Positions 20,622 to 29,239 of a DNA stretch of 64,000 nt are shown here, piece by piece (position 1 is the stretch's first letter; the number at the start of each line of letters is the position of its first letter). Location of the stretch: assembly GCF_001677475.2 (NCBI RefSeq), contig NZ_CP015229.1. One strand, written 5' to 3'. Origin of the DNA: Escherichia coli. Its GTDB lineage: Bacteria > Pseudomonadota > Gammaproteobacteria > Enterobacterales > Enterobacteriaceae. Under the pieces are notes generated by a model that saw only the letters and a list, made by a program, of their open reading frames with translations, ran no database searches and had not been told where the DNA came from. A program made the position numbers and the translations under genes.

Positions 20622-20626
20622 TTAAT

Positions 20627-20649
20627 GGCCGGATGTGCTTAATCCGGCC
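20627..20649. terminator. Hairpin between convergent yihN and the DeoR regulator gene
   Basis: ggccggat gtgctta atccggcc. Confidence 0.5.
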
Positions 20650-20680
20650 AACGAAAACCGTATCAACCGAAGTTTCAATT

Positions 20681-21469
20681 TCAGGATACTTCTTGCTCAG
20701 CAACCACCAGTTCAACATTCTCTTCACTTAACAACTGGCAGAAAGAATTGGGAGGCGGGGCATCAGTAAAAAAAGCCCTGACATTCCGTGCATTGCCAAT
20801 TGAAACGGCAGCAGACGCGGCAAACTTCGTATGATCGGCCACTAACAATGTATTCCGCGCATGTTTAATCATCGTTCTTGCGACTAACGCTTCATTGACA
20901 TCAAATTCCAGTAGGGTGCCGTCATGTTCAATGGCACCTATACTGGTGATTAAATAATCTGCGCGGAAGCCTTCAATAAAATCCACGGCTCCTGGGCCGA
21001 TAATCCCGCCGTTATGAGCGCGTAAAGTGCCTCCCGGCACCATCACTTCAATATCCTGATTCTTATAAAGAATCTGTGCCACACGTAGGCTGTTAGTGAT
21101 AATGCGTAAATCACGACGGTTGAGTAATGCCCTGGCAACGGCTTCTACGGTTGTACCGATGGTGATAAAGACGGTACAGCGTTCGGGAAGGTAATCGGCG
21201 ACTGCCTCAGCGATCGCCCGTTTCTCGGCGGTGAGCGAAAGTTCCCGTTGCTCAAAAGCGGTATTCATGACGCTGGAGACGCGCCCGGCCCCTCCATGAT
21301 GACGGGTGATCAACCCCTGCTCACTGAGTTTTCGGATATCCCGGCGCACGGTTTGCGTTGAAACATCCAGCAGTTGTGCCAGTTCTTCAATATTCATATA
21401 ACCGCGTTCTGCGATTAGATGAACGAGTTGGTCATGGCGTGGATTACCTGTCACTTCGATGATACTCAT
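20681..21469 (-). CDS. DeoR-family transcriptional regulator (YihW/CsqR-like)
   Basis: 262 aa; N-terminal HTH (STQTVRRDIRKL) and DeoR C-terminal sugar-phosphate-binding domain; related to but not the same as K-12 YihW as I remember it. Confidence 0.85.
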   Translation of the reverse strand: MSIIEVTGNPRHDQLVHLIAERGYMNIEELAQLLDVSTQTVRRDIRKLSEQGLITRHHGGAGRVSSVMNTAFEQRELSLTAEKRAIAEAVADYLPERCTVFITIGTTVEAVARALLNRRDLRIITNSLRVAQILYKNQDIEVMVPGGTLRAHNGGIIGPGAVDFIEGFRADYLITSIGAIEHDGTLLEFDVNEALVARTMIKHARNTLLVADHTKFAASAAVSIGNARNVRAFFTDAPPPNSFCQLLSEENVELVVAEQEVS

Positions 21470-21508
21470 GAATACTCCCTTGCCCCTCCTCGGTATATGT
21501 TTACCATT

Positions 21509-22405
21509 TTACGCATAAAGTGACAAAAATGATTCGGTTTGCTCACGATTAGGAATGCCGGCCCGACCGCCAGGCTGGGTACATTTCATCGCGGCAACCG
21601 CACTGGCAAAACGAATAGCCTCTTTTGTTGGCATTTTTTCTGCCAACGCTACCGCGAGTGCGCCGTGAAAAACATCGCCTGCTCCAGTGGTATCAACCAC
21701 ATTGACAGAAAATGCCTCCTGTTGACACAAATGATCATCTTCAATCCACAACGATCCTTCAGAACCCAGCGTAACATACACTTTACCTGCTGTTTGTGTC
21801 GTTGCCTGGAACAAACCTTCTTCAGGTGACTGCAGGCCAGTCATGCGTTTCAGCCCCGGTGTTGAGAACACGGCGTGATCGGCAAGCGCGACAAGTGGAG
21901 AAATATCCTGCGGTGTCATATCGGCGTCTAAAAGCGTTGTCACCCCCGCAAGGCGCGCTAGCGAGAATGCTTTTTCAGTACCGCTATGCCAGCGAACATC
22001 GGCCAGAATCAGATCATAACGAGAGAAATCGATCGCTTCTAACCATTCGGCATCAGTACCGAGATCGGGACTTGGATAATTAACGATAATCCGTTCGCCA
22101 TGCTGATCAACGAGGATCGCTGATTGCGACGAACGGGCGTTAGGATATCGGCGGCAAAATGCGGTATTGACGCCCCAACCCTCAAGTTCTGCAAGTAAGG
22201 TATTTCCACAACTGTCATCGCCGACGCGACCGATGAAATCAACCTCCACGCCAAGCTTTGCGATTGCAACAGCGGCTGTTGCTGCCGGGCCGCCACCAAT
22301 CTCAAGATAATGATTTGCCTGATATTTCCCGCCGCCATCCGGCAGAGTGAGCAAAGAATAAATCCTGTCCTGAACTGTGATACCCACGCATGCAATTTTT
22401 GTCAT
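21509..22405 (-). CDS. PfkB-family sugar kinase (YihV-like)
   Basis: 298 aa from ATG at 22405 with AGGA RBS; PfkB signature [17 protein letters not shown]; ORF track start 22456 is a probable over-extension. Confidence 0.85.
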
Positions 22406-22577
22406 ATTTGTCTTGTCCTGTTTAATTTTGTCGTCTTTGGTCAATTTAAATGACACAAATGATCAAATTAGTGATGTGTGTCGTGTTTTTGAACATAAAT
22501 TACAAATATGCTCAAAAACAGACGAAAACGAATTTTCAATTGTCATTATTTTGTCAATGTCAGACAGGAGAGTATTC
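22406..22577. promoter_or_regulatory. AT-rich divergent promoter/operator region between the kinase and reductase genes
   Basis: 172-nt AT-rich spacer with recurring TTTGTC / GACGAAAACGA-type motifs; candidate operator for the adjacent DeoR regulator. Confidence 0.4.
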
Positions 22578-23456
22578 ATGGCAACCATTGCATTTCTCGG
22601 GCTGGGGCAGATGGGTAGCCCAATGGCTAACAATCTATTGCGAAAAGGGCATTCATTGCAGGTATTTGATGTCAATGCACAGGCCGTCGATGCGCTAGTT
22701 ACGCAGGGGGCCACTGCGGCACAAACCCCAGCGGAAGCGGCAGCAGGCGCTGAATTTATCATCACTATGCTTCCCAATGGTGACATTGTTCGACAGGTTC
22801 TGTTGGGGGAAAAAGGCGTCTGTGAGGCTGTTTCATCTGACGCGTTATTGATTGATATGTCGACTATTCATCCCTTACAGACCGATGCATTAATACGGGA
22901 GTTACAAGAAAAAGGCATCAGTATGATGGACGCCCCCGTGGGCAGAACATCCGTGAATGCGATTGATGGCACATTGCTGATTTTAGCGGGTGGCACTGAT
23001 GAGCAGATTGCGCGTGCACGCCCGATTCTCATGTGCATGGGTAATGAGCTGGTCGAGGCTGGCGGCCCAGGAATGGGGATCCGCGTGAAGCTAATTAACA
23101 ACTATATGAGCATTGCGCTTAATGCGCTGTCCTCCGAGGCCGCTGTGTTATGTGAGTCACTGGGATTAAATCTTGATGTCGCAATTAAGGTGATGAGTGG
23201 TACGGCAGCAGGGAAAGGACATTTTACGACCACCTGGCCTGGCAAAGTGCTGAAAGGCGATCTTTCACCCGCCTTCATGGTGGATCTGGCGTTGAAAGAT
23301 CTGCGTATTGCAGTTGACGTCGCTCGGGAGACGGGGGCACCGCTCAATATGGGGATTGCAGCAGAAAGTTATTACGCCGCAGCAAGTCAAGACGGCAAAG
23401 GGCGGCAGGACTGGAGCGCCCTGCTAAATCAGGTTCGCCAGCAGGCTGGTCTTTAA
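22578..23456 (+). CDS. NAD(P)-dependent beta-hydroxyacid dehydrogenase family reductase (YihU / GarR-like)
   Basis: 292 aa from ATG at 22578 with RBS CAGGAGAG; dinucleotide fold [13 protein letters not shown]; ORF track start 22377 overlaps the divergent gene and is rejected. Confidence 0.85.
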
Positions 23457-23480
23457 TTTTATCTATTAACAGGAGTTTCT

Positions 23481-24368
23481 ATGTCATCCCACTTCACCCC
23501 ATTTACGCTGAAAGATATCTCCCGCCCAGGTGGTGGATTCGCCATGTTAGCTGTCGATCAGCGTGAGGCCATGCGCCTGATGTTTGCGGCAGCAGGGCAG
23601 CCCAAACCCATCGCCGACAGTGTACTCACCGATTTTAAAGTTGCCGCGACCCGAATCCTTTCTCCTTATGCTTCTGCCGTTCTGGCGGATAAACAATTTT
23701 GTCTTGAGCAAATAGTCGAGCAGGGCGCTGTTGCTAATTCTTGCGGCCTGATTGTCGCTGCCGATCTTTTTATCCCAGGTAATGGCATCCCGGTTGATAG
23801 CGTTGAAATAGATATGTCCGTCGACCCGCATAAAGCCCGTGAAATGGGGGCTAAGGCAATGAAATTACTTGTACTCTGGCGTGAAGATGAACCCGCAGAG
23901 GAACGTCTGGCAATGGTTGATAAATTTGTTCGTCGCTGCCGTAGTGCCGGACTGGTTAGCATTATTGAACCTGTGGTGCGTCCACCTCGTCGCGGTTGGG
24001 ACTTTGATCGTGAAAGCGCCATTGCCGCGGCCGCCGCAGAGCTTGGTGGAACAGAGGCTGATCTTTACAAAGCCGAGATGCCATTAGGGGGCAAAGGCGA
24101 TGAAAAAACCTTACTTGCCGCCTGTCAGCAACTTAACGATCAGATGAAGATGCCGTGGGTAATTCTTTCTTCTGGCGTTGATGCCGATATTTTTGGCCGT
24201 GCAGTAAGTATTGCCATGAAAGGTGGGGCGTCGGGCTTCCTGGCTGGACGAGCGGTTTGGGCGTCGGTTGTTGGTGCACAAGATCCACAAACTATGCTGC
24301 GCGATGTCTCCGTTCCACGCTTGCAACGGCTGGCTGAAATTGTCGATGAAGGTATCGCGCAACGCTAA
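23481..24368 (+). CDS. Class I aldolase family protein (YihT / sulfofructosephosphate-aldolase-like)
   Basis: 295 aa; shares blocks [45 protein letters not shown] with K-12 YihT as I remember it. Confidence 0.85.
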
Positions 24369-24400
24369 TCCCCTATGGATATCGATTCTGGAGAATAACA

Positions 24401-25411
24401 ATGGATAAAAGTACCCAGGTTTTATTTTCAGATATTGGGAAAGTCACCACTCAATATGTTGAAGTACCACACCAGGAACTTAAACCGCACGAAGTGCGGA
24501 TTGCGCCTGTGTTCTATGGGATATGCGGTTCGGATCTGCATGTTCTGAAAGGCGGTCATCCGTTTGCCAAACCACCTGTCGTCCCCGGTCATGAAATTGC
24601 AGCGCGCGTTGCGGAAGTTGGCAGCGACGTTAAAAATGTACAGCCGGGCGATCATGTTGTGGTCGATCCCATCATGGCTTGCATGGAATGCCGAGCCTGC
24701 AAAGCAGGACGTTTTAATCTTTGTGAACCACCGCAGGTTGCTGGTTTTCGCGCACCGGGCTTTGCTCGCTCACAACACATTGTTCCTGCGCGTAATTGCC
24801 ATGTCGCACCAGCCTCTTTACCGCTAAAAGTGTTAGCCTTTGCCGAACCGGCGGCTTGTGCTCGTCACTGCGTTAACCGAATGCCGAAAGCTTCTCTGGA
24901 AAGCGTACTGGTGATTGGTGCCGGAACGATAGGCTTATCCATCGTGCAGGCACTGCGCATTATGGGGGCAGGTAAGATTACCGTGATTGAACCTGACGCT
25001 GCCAAACGCGCGCTGGCGTTAAAGCTGGGCGCAGCAGAAGTTTGGGCACCAGGTGAGCTGGCCGCAGATGTGCGATTTACGGGGGCGATTGATGTCGTTG
25101 CAGCGCAGGCCACGCTTAACGATGCATGTACCCGTGTATATGCCGGAGGCACCGTCGTGTGCATGGGCGTACCAAGTGGGCCGCGTGAAATACCATTACC
25201 TATGATGCAACGTTTCGAGCGTGACTTGCTCAACTCTGGCATGTACATCCCTGAAGATTTCGATGCTGTTATCGAATGGCTGGCGGATGGGCGGTTTGAT
25301 ACCAGTGAACTGGTTACCGATTTATTTGCCATTGAGGATGCAGCGGCGGCATTCGAACGCGCGCAGCAAAATGACTCCATAAAGGTCATGCTGCAATTTG
25401 CGCCGGAATGA
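24401..25411 (+). CDS. Zn-dependent medium-chain dehydrogenase (polyol / sorbitol-dehydrogenase-like)
   Basis: 336 aa; catalytic-Zn Cys (GICGSDLHV), GHE motif (PGHEIAARV), structural-Zn C-x2-C-x2-C-x7-C (CMECRACKAGRFNLC), NAD site GAGTIGL. Confidence 0.85.
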   Translation: MDKSTQVLFSDIGKVTTQYVEVPHQELKPHEVRIAPVFYGICGSDLHVLKGGHPFAKPPVVPGHEIAARVAEVGSDVKNVQPGDHVVVDPIMACMECRACKAGRFNLCEPPQVAGFRAPGFARSQHIVPARNCHVAPASLPLKVLAFAEPAACARHCVNRMPKASLESVLVIGAGTIGLSIVQALRIMGAGKITVIEPDAAKRALALKLGAAEVWAPGELAADVRFTGAIDVVAAQATLNDACTRVYAGGTVVCMGVPSGPREIPLPMMQRFERDLLNSGMYIPEDFDAVIEWLADGRFDTSELVTDLFAIEDAAAAFERAQQNDSIKVMLQFAPE

Positions 25412-25480
25412 TTTTCTAAATCTCTGTCTGGCGCTGCGTCACGTCAGCGCCACCCTACAACAATTAAAAAGGACACTGCG

Positions 25481-26914
25481 ATGAGTCAAATCACCAGTCC
25501 TGCAACTTATTCAATTAGTCGGCCACAGGACGTAATTGATATTGTTAATAAGAACTCTGCAATCAACACCAGTATCGGCGTTATTTTTATTGCTTTGGGC
25601 GGCATATTGATTGATGCCTACCAGGCGGCGATGGTGGGGTTTGGTAATAAATACATTGCCGCTCAATTCGGCATTTCGCCGGGTCTTGCTGCAACCGTCA
25701 ATGCATCAGTATTAATCGCCGCGTTAATTGGCGGTTTATTAGCGAACCGAGTAATAAACCGCTTTGGGCAAAAGCGGGCATTTATTATTGGCATGGGGCT
25801 GTGCACCATCGGTGCTGCAGCGGTAGCTATTGCTCCCAGTATCTGGTGGGTGCTGGTGTGCCGCGTCATCATGGGCTTTGGTTTAGGCATCGACTTCCCT
25901 TTGGCAACCAATGCCGTGGCAGAGCTTCGTGGTTCAACGTCGAAGAAAACCGGAACGTCGGTCAACCTCTGGCAAATGGCCTGGTATGTTTCGACAACCG
26001 TTGTTTATTTGGTGCTTTTGCCGCTGCTTCTGTCGGGTATCGCTGAAGAACAATTGTGGCGTTACGGAATATTCATCGGAGCTATTTTTGCAGTCATCTT
26101 CATGATTTTGCGTTACTTCTTTATTGGTGAATCCGCAATGTGGGCTGCACGCGTCGGGCGTTACCAGGAAGCGTGCGACATTCTGGGAAAACGTTATGGT
26201 GTTCAGGCTCGCGTTGCGGCATCGGGTACAACAGAAGCGAAATTCTCGGAAAAAGCAGAGAATAAATACAGTGGTGGATATGGCATCTTATTTAATGATC
26301 GTTACCGCAAACGCACCATTCTTGGTTGTGTCGTGGCAACCATGCAGGCGTGGCAATATAACGCCGTAGGTGTTTATCTTCCTCTTACGTTGGCGGGAAT
26401 AATAAGTGGCGGGCTTACTGGCGCGTTGACCGGTTCTGCCGTCGTGAATGCCCTTTGTGGGGTGACAGGTGGGATGATCGGCTCGTTTATTCTCCAACGA
26501 CTGGGTACTCGCCGACAGTCGATGTATGGATTTGCTGTTGTGACCTTAGCATTGCTGTCGTTAGGCGCACTGGCAACGACTAATCCCTGGCTGTCTTTAG
26601 GGTTATTGGGATCAATTATTTTCTTCCATTCAGCGGGTCCTGGTGGGCTGGGCATGACCATTGCCACACTCTCTTATCCTCCCGCTATTCGTCCTACTGG
26701 GGTCGGATTTGCCCGCGCTATTATGCGCACAGGGGCAATTGCAGGACTCATTTTCTGGCCGATGCTGTGGGGTACGTTGAAAACTGAAGCGTTTTATTGG
26801 TTGGCAATTGTGCCATTCCTGGGGTTCCTGACCTGCGTATTGATTAATTGGGAACCTTTGGGAGCAAATGTTGATGCTGAGGATGCAGAGGTTCTGGCTG
26901 AATTGAAGAAATAA
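25481..26914 (+). CDS. MFS transporter (sugar / metabolite:H+ symporter-like)
   Basis: 477 aa; 12 predicted TM segments; MFS motif-A-like NRFGQKRA. Confidence 0.85.
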   Translation: MSQITSPATYSISRPQDVIDIVNKNSAINTSIGVIFIALGGILIDAYQAAMVGFGNKYIAAQFGISPGLAATVNASVLIAALIGGLLANRVINRFGQKRAFIIGMGLCTIGAAAVAIAPSIWWVLVCRVIMGFGLGIDFPLATNAVAELRGSTSKKTGTSVNLWQMAWYVSTTVVYLVLLPLLLSGIAEEQLWRYGIFIGAIFAVIFMILRYFFIGESAMWAARVGRYQEACDILGKRYGVQARVAASGTTEAKFSEKAENKYSGGYGILFNDRYRKRTILGCVVATMQAWQYNAVGVYLPLTLAGIISGGLTGALTGSAVVNALCGVTGGMIGSFILQRLGTRRQSMYGFAVVTLALLSLGALATTNPWLSLGLLGSIIFFHSAGPGGLGMTIATLSYPPAIRPTGVGFARAIMRTGAIAGLIFWPMLWGTLKTEAFYWLAIVPFLGFLTCVLINWEPLGANVDAEDAEVLAELKK

Positions 26915-26951
26915 ATTAATGCGCATCGGCTTAAACCGATGCGCATTAATT
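26915..26951. other. Perfect 15-bp inverted repeat between the two transporter genes
   Basis: aattaatgcgcatcgg cttaaa ccgatgcgcattaatt; no following T-run. Confidence 0.6.
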
Positions 26952-27012
26952 CAAACTGCCCACGTTTAGTGGTTCGTATCCCAGATTTCTCGCCTACCAG
27001 GAGAGGAAAATT

Positions 27013-28362
27013 ATGTCTGAAAAGTTACCCGCACCGCGTGAAGGGCTTTCCGGTAAAGCCATGAGACGTGTCGTTATGGGCAGTTTCGCAGGCGCGTTAA
27101 TGGAATGGTATGACTTCTTTATTTTTGGCACGGCAGCAGGACTGGTATTTGCACCGCTGTTTTATCCAGACAGCGATCCTTTTATAGGTCTTATAGCTTC
27201 CTTTGCGACCTTTGGTGTCGGTTTTCTGACTCGTCCTTTAGGTGGCATCGTCTTTGGTCATTTTGGCGATAAAATCGGGCGAAAAATAACACTTATCTGG
27301 ACGCTGGCTATTGTCGGTTGCTCCACATTTTTGATTGGTTTTATTCCGACGTATCAGGAAATTGGCATTTGGGCACCGCTTGTATTAATGGTGCTGCGTT
27401 TGATTCAGGGCTTTGGTCTTGGTGGCGAGTACGGCGGAGCGGCATTGATGACCATAGAATCAGCGCCCGAATCCCGACGCGGATTTTTAGGTTCACTCCC
27501 GCAAACGGCTGCGTCTGTGGGTATTATGCTGGCAACCGGTATTTTTGCTCTCTGTAACCATTTTCTTACTTCGGAGCAGTTTCTCTCCTGGGGATGGCGC
27601 ATTCCGTTTTGGCTTTCTGCGGTGATGTTGATCGTTGGGCTGTTTATCCGCCTGCATACCGAAGAAACGCTGGATTTTCAAAAGCAAAAAACGACGAATA
27701 ATAAAGAAAAGTCCGTTCCTCCGTTGATTGAATTATTCAAAAAACATCCACGAAATATTTTATTGGCACTGGGTGCGAGGCTGGCGGAAAGTGTCTCCTC
27801 TAATATTATTAACGCCTTTGGTATTGTCTATATTTCCAGCCAATTAGCATTGTCGCGAGATATTCCCCTGACGGGTATGTTGATTGCCTCGGCGATCGGT
27901 ATTTTCAGTTGTCCATTGGTTGGATGGTTATCAGATCGTATAGGTCAAAAAAGTCTGTATTTGTCGGGAGCAGGATTTTGTGTCCTGTTCGCGTTTCCTT
28001 TCTTCTTATTACTGGATAGCAAAAGTACGCTCATCATCTGGTGCAGTATGATCCTCGGCTACAACTTAGGTCCGACGATGATGTTTGCCGTGCAGCCAAC
28101 ACTTTTCACCCGCATGTTCGGTACCAAAGTACGATATACCGGCCTTTCTTTTGCTTATCAATTTTCCGCGATTCTTGGCGGACTAAGCCCCCTTATCGCC
28201 TCAAGTTTGCTGGCGCTAGGGGGAGGAAAACCGTGGTATGTCGCTCTGTTTTTATTTGCTGTCTCAGTTCTTTCCTTTGTTTGCGTCTGGCTGATTGAGC
28301 CGACCGATGAACAAGAAACCGCTTCTTACCGCTACATCAGGGAACAATCTCATGAAAACTGA
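27013..28362 (+). CDS. MFS transporter, metabolite:H+ symporter (MHS) family
   Basis: 449 aa; MHS-type motifs GHFGDKIGRK and GGEYGGAALM. Confidence 0.85.
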   Translation: MSEKLPAPREGLSGKAMRRVVMGSFAGALMEWYDFFIFGTAAGLVFAPLFYPDSDPFIGLIASFATFGVGFLTRPLGGIVFGHFGDKIGRKITLIWTLAIVGCSTFLIGFIPTYQEIGIWAPLVLMVLRLIQGFGLGGEYGGAALMTIESAPESRRGFLGSLPQTAASVGIMLATGIFALCNHFLTSEQFLSWGWRIPFWLSAVMLIVGLFIRLHTEETLDFQKQKTTNNKEKSVPPLIELFKKHPRNILLALGARLAESVSSNIINAFGIVYISSQLALSRDIPLTGMLIASAIGIFSCPLVGWLSDRIGQKSLYLSGAGFCVLFAFPFFLLLDSKSTLIIWCSMILGYNLGPTMMFAVQPTLFTRMFGTKVRYTGLSFAYQFSAILGGLSPLIASSLLALGGGKPWYVALFLFAVSVLSFVCVWLIEPTDEQETASYRYIREQSHEN

Positions 28363-29239
28363 ACGAAAAAACGAGCATTACCTGGCGCTACAACAGGCGT
28401 TTGACGCGCCATGGCCTGGGCCTGTAGGAGAGTTAGTGACGCTGGAAAAAGGCAATATTCACCTGCAGATTTATCCGCATGATGGTGCCAGGATAACCTC
28501 GTTAAAGGCATTTGGTTCTGAAGTATTACGCCAATGGCAGCCGCAGCGCAGAGCTTTTCAGTATGGCTGTTTCCCAATGGTGCCGTGGGCAGGGCGACTG
28601 GGGAATGCGACGCTGAATGCTGGTGGGCAATGTTATTCTTTACCCGCCAATAAACCACCACATGCGTTGCATGGTATGGCTTGTTACTCAACGTGGGAAA
28701 TCATCGACAAAACAATAGATTCCCTGACTTTACGTATGCCCCTGGCTTCACCGTGGCCCTGGCAAGGGGAAGTGATTCAGACTTTTTTGCTGGAGAACGA
28801 TGCGCTGGTTTTGCAACTGGAAATCCATTCACATACCGATACATTCCCGGCCTCTGCAGGCTGGCATCCGTGGTTTGCGAAAAAGCTGACTCCGCAAAAT
28901 ACAGAATCGTTGCAGGTGCTTTTTGATGCGGACTGGCAAGAGGAAGCGGGTAGTGATGAACTGCCAACTGGAAATCGCATCTCTCCTCAAGCTGGTCCCT
29001 GGGATGACTGTTTTGGTTTTTATGACGGGGTGAAGGTTAAGTTACTGTGGCCTGGTAAACTCACGATGACCATGACCTCTTCTGCAAACAGTCTGGTGGT
29101 ATTTGATAAACAGCCCGATGCCACCTGTGTTAATCCGCTTACTCAGGCACCTAACGCAATAAATCTAACGCCGGAATTGGTGACATCAGATAAGCCGCTG
29201 GTCATCGAAACTCGTTGGCAATTTACACCTGAATCTTAA
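28352..29239 (+). CDS. Aldose 1-epimerase (mutarotase) family protein (YihR-like)
   Basis: 295 aa from ATG at 28352 (MKTERKNEHY...) with RBS AGGGA; overlaps the upstream transporter by 11 nt; the 28295 TTG start is less likely. Confidence 0.8.
   Translation: MKTERKNEHYLALQQAFDAPWPGPVGELVTLEKGNIHLQIYPHDGARITSLKAFGSEVLRQWQPQRRAFQYGCFPMVPWAGRLGNATLNAGGQCYSLPANKPPHALHGMACYSTWEIIDKTIDSLTLRMPLASPWPWQGEVIQTFLLENDALVLQLEIHSHTDTFPASAGWHPWFAKKLTPQNTESLQVLFDADWQEEAGSDELPTGNRISPQAGPWDDCFGFYDGVKVKLLWPGKLTMTMTSSANSLVVFDKQPDATCVNPLTQAPNAINLTPELVTSDKPLVIETRWQFTPES

Follow-up and report, generated by a model that had tools for sequence, protein, structure and literature searches.

The spacer between the divergent yihV-like kinase and yihU-like reductase genes is, with a probability that we put at roughly 70%, the shared promoter and operator region of the Nissle-type short yih cassette, in which the regulator YihW would occupy a central operator and spread from it cooperatively. 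That the spacer is a control region bound by YihW is very probable; that the primary YihW site is the conserved central quasi-palindrome (22480-22523, reaching to about 22533) we infer at slightly better than even odds. Both the control region and its regulator have already been published, and no new kind of element is described here. The window, i.e. the whole stretch of DNA that was analysed, comprises 64,000 nucleotides of an E. coli chromosome (99.2% identity to strains such as HS).

The short yih cassette and its relatives

The local gene order is typA-yihL-yihM-yihN, the regulator and kinase genes (minus strand), the spacer, the genes from reductase to epimerase, and yihX (Table 1). The genes were assigned from their ORFs and NCBIfam matches and agree with the RefSeq annotation of identical loci. 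The window differs in size from strain HS by 51 bp, located in the yihN/yihW intergenic region and outside the spacer. Nissle 1917 has the gene order of the window, a spacer that is one base apart (22477, T against C) and a YihW that is one residue apart (A217T). The cassette is the "short" (Nissle-type) yih cassette of Kaznadzey et al. 2025 (PMC12608037), who call it a truncated yihTUVW form and nowhere mention the dehydrogenase in their text. Spacer copies at least 95% identical were found in 1326 of 5426 complete E. coli genomes (24%), and the carriers of the short cassette include Nissle 1917 and ST131 strains. A search of the cassette against PLSDB for mobility gave no match.

E. coli K-12 has ompL-yihOPQRSTU / yihVW at the same place, and the window cassette is inverted relative to yihN/yihX. 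It is without yihS, yihQ, yihO, yihP and ompL, has the polyol-type dehydrogenase and two other MFS genes instead, and carries a distant aldose 1-epimerase (about 24% identical) in place of yihR. The shared proteins are only 66-72% identical to those of K-12 (YihW 72%, YihV 66%, YihU 71%, YihT 66%). Since yihS and yihQ are absent, here and from every S-type locus defined below, the cassette is not a canonical sulfo-EMP cluster. The sulfonate-pocket residues of the K-12-type sulfo-EMP kinase, aldolase and reductase are present in the window, and all of the published pocket residues are intact: the sulfonate triad K27/N109/R138 and the catalytic D244 are conserved in YihV, R123/N174/S178 are conserved in YihU, and A26/K193/S226/S227/R253 of YihT align with identical residues.

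A kinase scan of species-representative genomes yielded 76 loci, which were classed by their neighbouring genes. Ten S-type loci have the dehydrogenase after the aldolase (Escherichia sp., three named and one unnamed Citrobacter, Mixta, Trabulsiella, Phytobacter, Enterobacter sp. and Erwinia typographi), 44 fetched K-12-type loci from many Enterobacterales have yihS there (45 aligned spacers including K-12), and ten loci of a third group (Yersinia, Serratia and Chimaeribacter) have neither. The comparative footprint covered 11 S-type, 45 K-12-type and 10 Yersinia/Serratia/Chimaeribacter spacers; the Vibrio and Serratia DD3 loci, with a regulator only 44-50% identical, were left out. The aldolase, dehydrogenase and first MFS genes come after yihU in 10/10 S-type loci from other taxa. 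The module of regulator, kinase, reductase, aldolase, polyol-type dehydrogenase and MFS genes is conserved in ten loci of seven genera, and the second MFS and epimerase genes are also present in E. coli.

Table 1. Features of the yih cassette and its spacer. Mean identities are to the window, over nine non-Escherichia S-type spacers (the eleven minus the window and the near-identical L003).
Feature	Position	Strand	Remarks
yihW-like DeoR/GlpR-family regulator, 262 aa	20681-21469	minus	NCBIfam DeoR/GlpR match
Putative yihW promoter/operator (CGTGA..., TTTTTGTCACTTTATG, -10 CGTAAAAT)	21506-21547	minus	in the yihV 3' end
yihV-like PfkB kinase, 298 aa	21509-22405	minus	66% identical to K-12 sulfofructose kinase
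Divergent spacer, 172 nt	22406-22577		between the yihV-like and yihU-like ATGs
TTTGTC copies 1 and 2 (22407-22412, 22427-22432) and TTGTC 22413	22407-22432	plus	flank the yihV Shine-Dalgarno
Conserved core	22442-22528		mean identity 0.86
Predicted yihV -10 TAAATT, start near 22436	22443-22448	minus	aligns with K-12 TAAAAT
S-type-specific conserved block TTAAATGACACAAATGATCAAATTAGTGAT	22446-22475	plus	mean identity 0.90
CRP-like AGTGA-N6-TCGTG	22470-22485, centre 22477.5		6/10 consensus positions
44-bp quasi-palindrome GTCGTGTTTTTGAACATA-AATTACAAA-TATGCTCAAAAACAGAC	22480-22523		candidate primary YihW operator; mean identity 0.88
Window equivalent of the K-12 YihW ChIP-exo peak	22493-22533		29/41 positions identical
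Predicted yihU -10 TATGCT, start near 22518	22507-22512	plus	aligns with K-12 TACGAT
GACGAAAACGA element	22521-22531	plus	one copy
TTGTCA (22540), TTTGTC copy 3 (22550), TGTCA (22558)	22540-22562	plus	yihU leader
Three TTTGTC copies			mean identity 0.80-0.83
Left flank / right flank			mean identity 0.72 / 0.68
yihU-like sulfolactaldehyde 3-reductase, 292 aa	22578-23456	plus	NCBIfam NF012005, 580 bits (cutoff 348)
yihT-like aldolase	23481-24368	plus	
Zn-dependent polyol-type dehydrogenase	24401-25411	plus	sorbitol/ketose-reductase group
MFS transporter 1	25481-26914	plus	
MFS transporter 2	27013-28362	plus	
Aldose 1-epimerase	28352-29239	plus	

Composition, conservation and promoters of the spacer

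The sequence-only reading had described an AT-rich 172-nt spacer with several copies of TTTGTC and with a GACGAAAACGA-like element in both orientations, and had proposed these as candidate half-sites for the DeoR regulator encoded next door. Its boundaries are exact, lying against the kinase ATG (22405, minus) and the reductase ATG (22578, plus); the GC content is 30.2%, compared to 49.8% window-wide; a DeoR/GlpR-family gene does come after the kinase; and TTTGTC is present three times (22407, 22427 and 22550). The orientation did not hold. Two further copies of TTGTC (22413 and 22540) bring this word to five, every one on the plus strand, and GACGAAAACGA occurs once, its only reverse-orientation partner being a 9-nt match (TTGTCGTCT at 22428-22436 against AGACGAAAA at 22520-22528, 8/9).

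As a pre-named word, TTTGTC reached three copies in 2 of 2000 dinucleotide shuffles. When the choice of motif was allowed for, some 6-mer was present three times in 50% of the shuffles and some 5-mer five times in 15%; the repeat count is therefore ordinary and not beyond chance. Families of 10-12-mer repeats with mismatches did not rise above shuffles in the window spacer. The TGTC/GACA core was observed nine times against 2.7 expected (z 4.4, rank 2 among 4-mers), an enrichment that the S-type spacers of Enterobacter and Trabulsiella lack. Within the spacer, one repeat alone is conspicuous, a central inverted repeat that emerged with no motif chosen beforehand; its arms (22484-22497 and 22507-22520) are 13/14 complementary across a 9-nt gap, a level reached in 4 of 500 shuffles. 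The search for several half-sites gave no significant repeat family in the window spacer, yet the central inverted repeat and the TGTC enrichment were significant.

Spacer length is 152-173 nt throughout the S-type and K-12-type groups. Across 64 orthologous spacers, a conserved core (about 22442-22530) is common to all of the groups, including the K-12 CsqR target, and reads cATTTTAAT ... AGTGA-N6-TC ... GTTTTT ... CATAAATTACAAATAyGmTCAAAAACAGAC. Pairwise and 56-sequence alignments demonstrated that it is homologous to the K-12 spacer, the ChIP-exo-bound segment included. The motifs of the sequence-only reading persisted in part: the TTTGTC copies exceed the flanks in conservation by a small margin (Table 1), and the TGT(C) cores are conserved islands for four of the five TTGTC copies (among them TGT or TGTC at 22409, 22429 and 22540), but exact TTTGTC is kept in only 5/11 (copy 1) and 4/11 (copy 2) of the S-type sequences. 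In the right flank, TTGT (22540-22543) and the T-run that follows are conserved, and TGTCA at 22558 is not (0.31). TGACA at 22451 is present in 10/11 S-type sequences, within the S-type-specific block that is also the best spacer match to the yihW-promoter word GTGACAAAAATGAT. Most S-type orthologues keep the word GACGAAAA at the palindrome's right edge. A tandem TGACA pair is conserved beside yihU in K-12-type spacers, in an orientation opposite to that of the window words; in the window, this pair is replaced by differently oriented TGTC words.

A consensus promoter and terminator scan found nothing at 9/12 or better, and the predictions of the yihV and yihU promoters therefore draw on the homologous K-12 starts alone. 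Lack of a strong consensus promoter fits activator-dependent promoters. In K-12, primer extension placed the yihV start at -25/-27 and yihU starts at -62/-63, among others; the K-12 hexamers that align with the predicted -10 elements lie 5-7 nt upstream of the yihV start (TAAAAT) and 6-7 nt upstream of the yihU start at -62/-63 (TACGAT). The CRP-like site aligns with a better K-12 site, AGTGA-N6-TCAAT (7/10), and CRP binds the K-12 yihU/V fragment. The centre of the window site is about 41 bp from both predicted starts, a spacing that resembles divergent class II CRP-dependent sugar-catabolic promoters with a local repressor, where TGTGA-N6-TCACA is centred near -41.5 of the start, although the window site has only 6/10 consensus positions and the starts are placed by homology to K-12. 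The sole base that differs between the window and Nissle (22477) lies in the N6 of this site, and S-type orthologues differ from one another in its right half. With the predicted start near 22436, TTTGTC copies 1 and 2 would fall downstream of it into the yihV leader, on either side of the yihV Shine-Dalgarno AGGA (the complement of 22416-22419). The yihU Shine-Dalgarno (AGGAG, 22566-22570) is downstream of the TGTC words of the yihU leader.

YihW binding and a candidate operator

The earlier statement that no binding data exist was incorrect. An EMSA has been published for the Nissle allele, one base away from the window spacer, in which YihW binds the yihU/V fragment and cooperative high-molecular-weight complexes form (Kaznadzey et al. 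2025, PMC12608037), and the proposed tie between the divergent control region and the neighbouring DeoR-family regulator is borne out by this binding. The degenerate primers of the supplement match window positions 22376-22395 and 22620-22640; the yihU/V fragment therefore corresponds to 22376-22640 (265 bp, the whole spacer inside, tested only entire), and the yihV/W fragment to 21371-21705. Either of the Nissle and K-12 YihW proteins binds either spacer in EMSA, Nissle YihW binding is weaker at 37 °C, and sulfoquinovose dissociates the complexes, less strongly on Nissle fragments (PMC12608037). In vivo, the short cassette was not induced by sulfoquinovose in Nissle (PMC12608037). With weak binding at 37 °C and no induction by sulfoquinovose, in both of which the Nissle-type system differs from K-12, the physiological importance of YihW repression is uncertain.

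The window spacer is a member of the CsqR/YihW yihU-yihV control-region family described in K-12 (Shimada 2019, Kaznadzey 2018, Gao 2021). Its place is the same (172 nt in the window vs. 167 nt in K-12), some 85 bp of its core are homologous, the two regulators have a near-identical helix-turn-helix and are reported to cross-bind, and there is likewise a second target, the regulator's own promoter within the yihV 3' end. For K-12 CsqR on the homologous spacer, gSELEX, EMSA (gel shift) and AFM have been reported: gSELEX identifies CsqR as a single-target factor, and the complex is released by sulfoquinovose and not by glucose. YihW is reported to form large aggregates at 16-48-fold molar excess. 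Compared to the helix-turn-helix of CsqR (residues 25-63), YihW has two conservative changes only (E28D and Q32N, BLASTP). With the DNA-binding domain nearly identical, the operator should be the same and should sit among the elements common to both spacer types, in agreement with the cross-binding.

K-12 YihW gave one strong ChIP-exo peak (4071641-4071681, signal/noise 168), with a signal of 14 or less elsewhere (Gao et al. 2021). These are U00096.2 coordinates, which we verified by the published yihV start (4071737, at -25/-27 of the ATG). The peak maps to 13619-13659 of L002 and reads CGATAAATTACAAATACGATCAAAAACAGACAAGCAAAGCA in window orientation. Over it, nearly all of ATAAATTACAAATA.G.TCAAAAACAGAC is identical between the window and K-12. 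The equivalent stretch in the window overlaps the 44-bp quasi-palindrome, holds GACGAAAA and contains no TTTGTC copy. A literature search for the CsqR/YihW operator found no defined site, and Shimada et al. 2019 may define sites differently.

The pattern GTC-N2-3-TTTT, defined post hoc after the data had been seen, is present at two places of the window spacer, 22480 (plus) and 22514-22523 (minus), as a convergent pair at the ends of the quasi-palindrome. The 34-nt offset of the pair is constant in most S-type, K-12-type, Yersinia and Serratia spacers, whereas Mixta (L007) and Chimaeribacter (L062) each lack one arm. An unbiased repeat search in the K-12 spacer returned TGTCACTTTTTG, TGTCTGTTTTTG and CGTCACTTTTTA, with TGTCAATTTTTT on the opposite strand, a four-copy 12-mer family reached in 0 of 300 shuffles, of which one copy is in the centre of the ChIP-exo peak and the same word recurs at the yihW promoter; unlike in K-12, this family is not significant in the window spacer. 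Against the palindrome as operator, the peak covers the right arm and the centre while the left arm is outside, and the inner three bases of the left arm vary among S-type spacers without compensating changes. Moreover, conservation of the core cannot separate an operator from promoter and CRP elements. As operator half-sites, the TTTGTC and GACGAAAACGA words are only partly supported: the central element (22480-22533), where the K-12 peak and the strongest phylogenetic footprint coincide, has the better evidence, and it overlaps GACGAAAA but no TTTGTC.

The second target was compared in 51 orthologues. In the yihV 3' end, a stretch of about 50 nt has no variation at synonymous sites; within it, at the yihW promoter, GTCACTTT does not change and the T-run before GTC does, which favours GTC followed by a T-run, rather than TTTGTC, as the constrained unit. 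Relative to the mapped yihW start, the K-12 homologue GTCACTTTTT spans -22 to -13, and both cassette types have TTTTTGTCAC at their yihW promoter.

In the E. coli glp regulon, GlpR operators are built of the half-site WATGTTCGWT, and a tetramer binds several of them cooperatively. Among characterised paralogues, GlpR is the closest to YihW, whose best NCBIfam match is a GlpR-type model, and multiple sites with oligomeric binding are plausible for YihW as well. The inner arms of the palindrome, TATGTTCAAA and TATGCTCAAA, match this half-site at 8/10 and 7/10 positions; unlike in GlpR operators, they are 9 bp apart and face outward instead of abutting head-to-head, and the arms of the K-12 spacer match less well (5-7/10). 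The spacer has no full palindrome of the GlpR consensus, only half-site-like 10-mers with 2-3 mismatches, and no palindrome within 5 mismatches of the DeoR consensus; it agrees with the AgaR consensus, a degenerate T-rich pattern, at 19/24 positions. An identity with the GlpR, DeoR or AgaR operators was rejected, as these consensus sequences gave weak half-site-like matches only. K-12 YihW also gives a weak ChIP-exo signal at glpA (Gao et al. 2021). This signal adjoins AAAAAACGAAC, just upstream of the glpA ATG and loosely like the window word GAAAACGAA; the resemblance was dropped, as CGAA is not conserved among S-type orthologues.

In the mechanism that we propose, the spacer would drive yihV-yihW leftward and yihU, yihT, the dehydrogenase and the transporter genes rightward. 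YihW, published to bind this spacer and its own promoter region in vitro, would first occupy the central quasi-palindrome, which overlaps the predicted yihU -10 and start and abuts the CRP-like site, from where CRP may supply activation. The bound repressor would then oligomerise along the AT-rich DNA, probably using weaker sites of TGTC plus a T-run in both leaders, among which the TTTGTC copies of the flanks may serve as auxiliary sites. Its occupancy would keep the two divergent promoters occluded, up to its release by a sulfosugar effector.

Alternative explanations and biological meaning

It is unlikely that YihW has its principal half-sites in the TTTGTC-type repeats and in GACGAAAACGA in both orientations. 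The enrichment of TGTC/GACA, the TGT(C) islands in the flanks and TTTTTGTCAC at both yihW promoters argue for it, as do the K-12-type spacers, where GTCA/GACA are the most enriched 4-mers of the spacer bound by CsqR and the TGACA pair beside yihU is conserved. However, the copies are on one strand and GACGAAAACGA is single, the repeat count is ordinary after allowing for motif choice, exact TTTGTC is kept in a minority of orthologues (4-5/11) and TGTC is not enriched in Enterobacter and Trabulsiella. Two copies bracket the yihV ribosome-binding site, the yihW promoter keeps GTCACTTT while the T-run ahead of it varies, and the K-12 ChIP-exo peak is over the centre and not over the flanks. In the RNA, as leader or translation elements of yihV and yihU, the TTTGTC/GACAA words would all be in predicted 5' leaders near both Shine-Dalgarno sequences. 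We consider such a role very improbable: an Rfam scan of 22250-22750 gave sub-threshold noise only, with no family near threshold, the predicted leader folds are no stabler than shuffles (z 0.42 and 0.15), and for this allele the leaders themselves rest on predicted start sites.

A conserved centre might also reflect promoter architecture (the -10 elements, A/T tracts and CRP), with YihW coating AT-rich DNA unspecifically and the repeats a matter of composition. The core does hold the predicted -10 hexamers, start sites and CRP-like site, YihW forms its large aggregates at high molar excess, and no repeat family of the window spacer exceeds shuffles. This explanation is also improbable, since gSELEX classes CsqR as a single-target factor, the contrast in ChIP-exo signal (168 here vs. 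14 or less elsewhere) argues for sequence specificity, sulfoquinovose releases the complex while glucose does not, and the 12-mer family of K-12 exceeds chance and turns up again at the second known target. A YihW operator at the centre of the spacer, with cooperative spreading into the flanks, is the reading that we retain.

The intact pocket residues, the polyol-dehydrogenase-type enzyme in the place of the isomerase and the conservation of the module suggest a working pathway for a different sulfonated substrate. Tentatively, and at somewhat less than even odds, what the spacer controls may be no decayed remnant of the sulfoquinovose cluster but an intact pathway of eight genes, exchanged horizontally, that acts on another sulfonated sugar or sugar alcohol. 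A literature search with sulfo-hexitols and sulfofucose as substrates found nothing tied to the cassette.

The practical value of these results is modest. They add a testable operator proposal (22480-22523 plus the weaker TGTC/T-run sites) for a cassette present in 24% of complete E. coli genomes. If the cassette is a separate pathway, YihW would share the operator of CsqR yet answer a different natural inducer. The spacer would be a natural reporter with which the inducer and the substrate of the cassette could be found.

Putative promoter and hairpin elements within the cassette

Variability at third codon positions was lost over the last ~50 nt of the yihV-like kinase gene (51 orthologues). 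This loss fits, from the alignment, a yihW promoter/operator embedded in the coding sequence, and the position of the putative element (Table) agrees with the yihW start published for K-12 and with the yihV/W EMSA fragment. In the rightward arm of the cassette, a perfect inverted repeat separates the two MFS genes and has no T-run on its 3' side. One possible reading is a hairpin, of the transcript-end or REP-like kind, at which the cassette is divided into two units.

Table. Coordinates and composition of the short yih cassette and of two elements within it
Feature	Position	Strand	Composition or context
Short yih cassette	20681-29239		Regulator and kinase, divergent from reductase, aldolase, Zn polyol-type dehydrogenase, two MFS genes and aldose 1-epimerase
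Putative embedded yihW promoter and operator	21506-21547	minus	CGTGA..., TTTTTGTCACTTT, TAAAAT; invariant codon third positions, 3' end of kinase gene
Perfect 15-nt inverted repeat, 6-nt loop	26915-26950		ATTAATGCGCATCGG CTTAAA CCGATGCGCATTAAT; between two MFS genes

Outside the yihV/yihU spacer, the yihN/yihW intergenic region showed a 51-bp insertion/deletion polymorphism: it measures 59 nt in the window (20622-20680) vs. 110 nt in E. coli HS (positions 23-132 of locus L080), and the 110-nt form was also present in many other strains. In the spacer search of complete E. coli genomes, one match (H40, NZ_AP027764.1) showed 70% identity and covered the yihU-proximal part of the query alone; this genome may carry a third variant of the spacer. 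Two of 1327 matches fell on records labelled plasmid, and a PLSDB search with the cassette returned no match.

DNA and effector recognition by YihW

In K-12, a weak secondary YihW ChIP-exo signal (13.7) lay within a few bases of the glpA start, on its upstream side (~331-337 of L081, the K-12 glpA region), beside AAAAAACGAAC, a GlpR-operator-like word. The adjacency of the two is a hint that YihW and GlpR, as paralogous repressors, cross-recognise sites to some extent.

A 2024 docking study proposed N69, R75, T106, T107, R150, N153, S176, E193, D212 and K215 as the ligand-binding residues of CsqR, the K-12 counterpart of YihW. All of them are identical in the YihW of the window (gapless alignment, read by eye), and at adjacent positions the same reading shows S151 replaced by A and S154 by G. 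As these docking-predicted pocket residues are unchanged, the YihW effector is probably still a sulfosugar-like molecule.

Gene content and predicted substrate of the cassette

The cassette comprises eight genes in the window; the comparison of gene content also covered loci L003-L010, L069, L074 and L079. It has been published as the 'short/truncated yihTUVW cassette' (Kaznadzey et al. 2025, PMC12608037), in a text that nowhere mentions the dehydrogenase. The stretch from the regulator to the first MFS gene was kept in ten loci from seven genera, and no sulfonate-pocket residue was lost from the kinase, the aldolase or the reductase. The eight-gene make-up, the conservation of this stretch and the intact pockets together suggest that the cassette would encode a functional pathway whose sulfonated substrate is not a sulfoquinovose glycoside.
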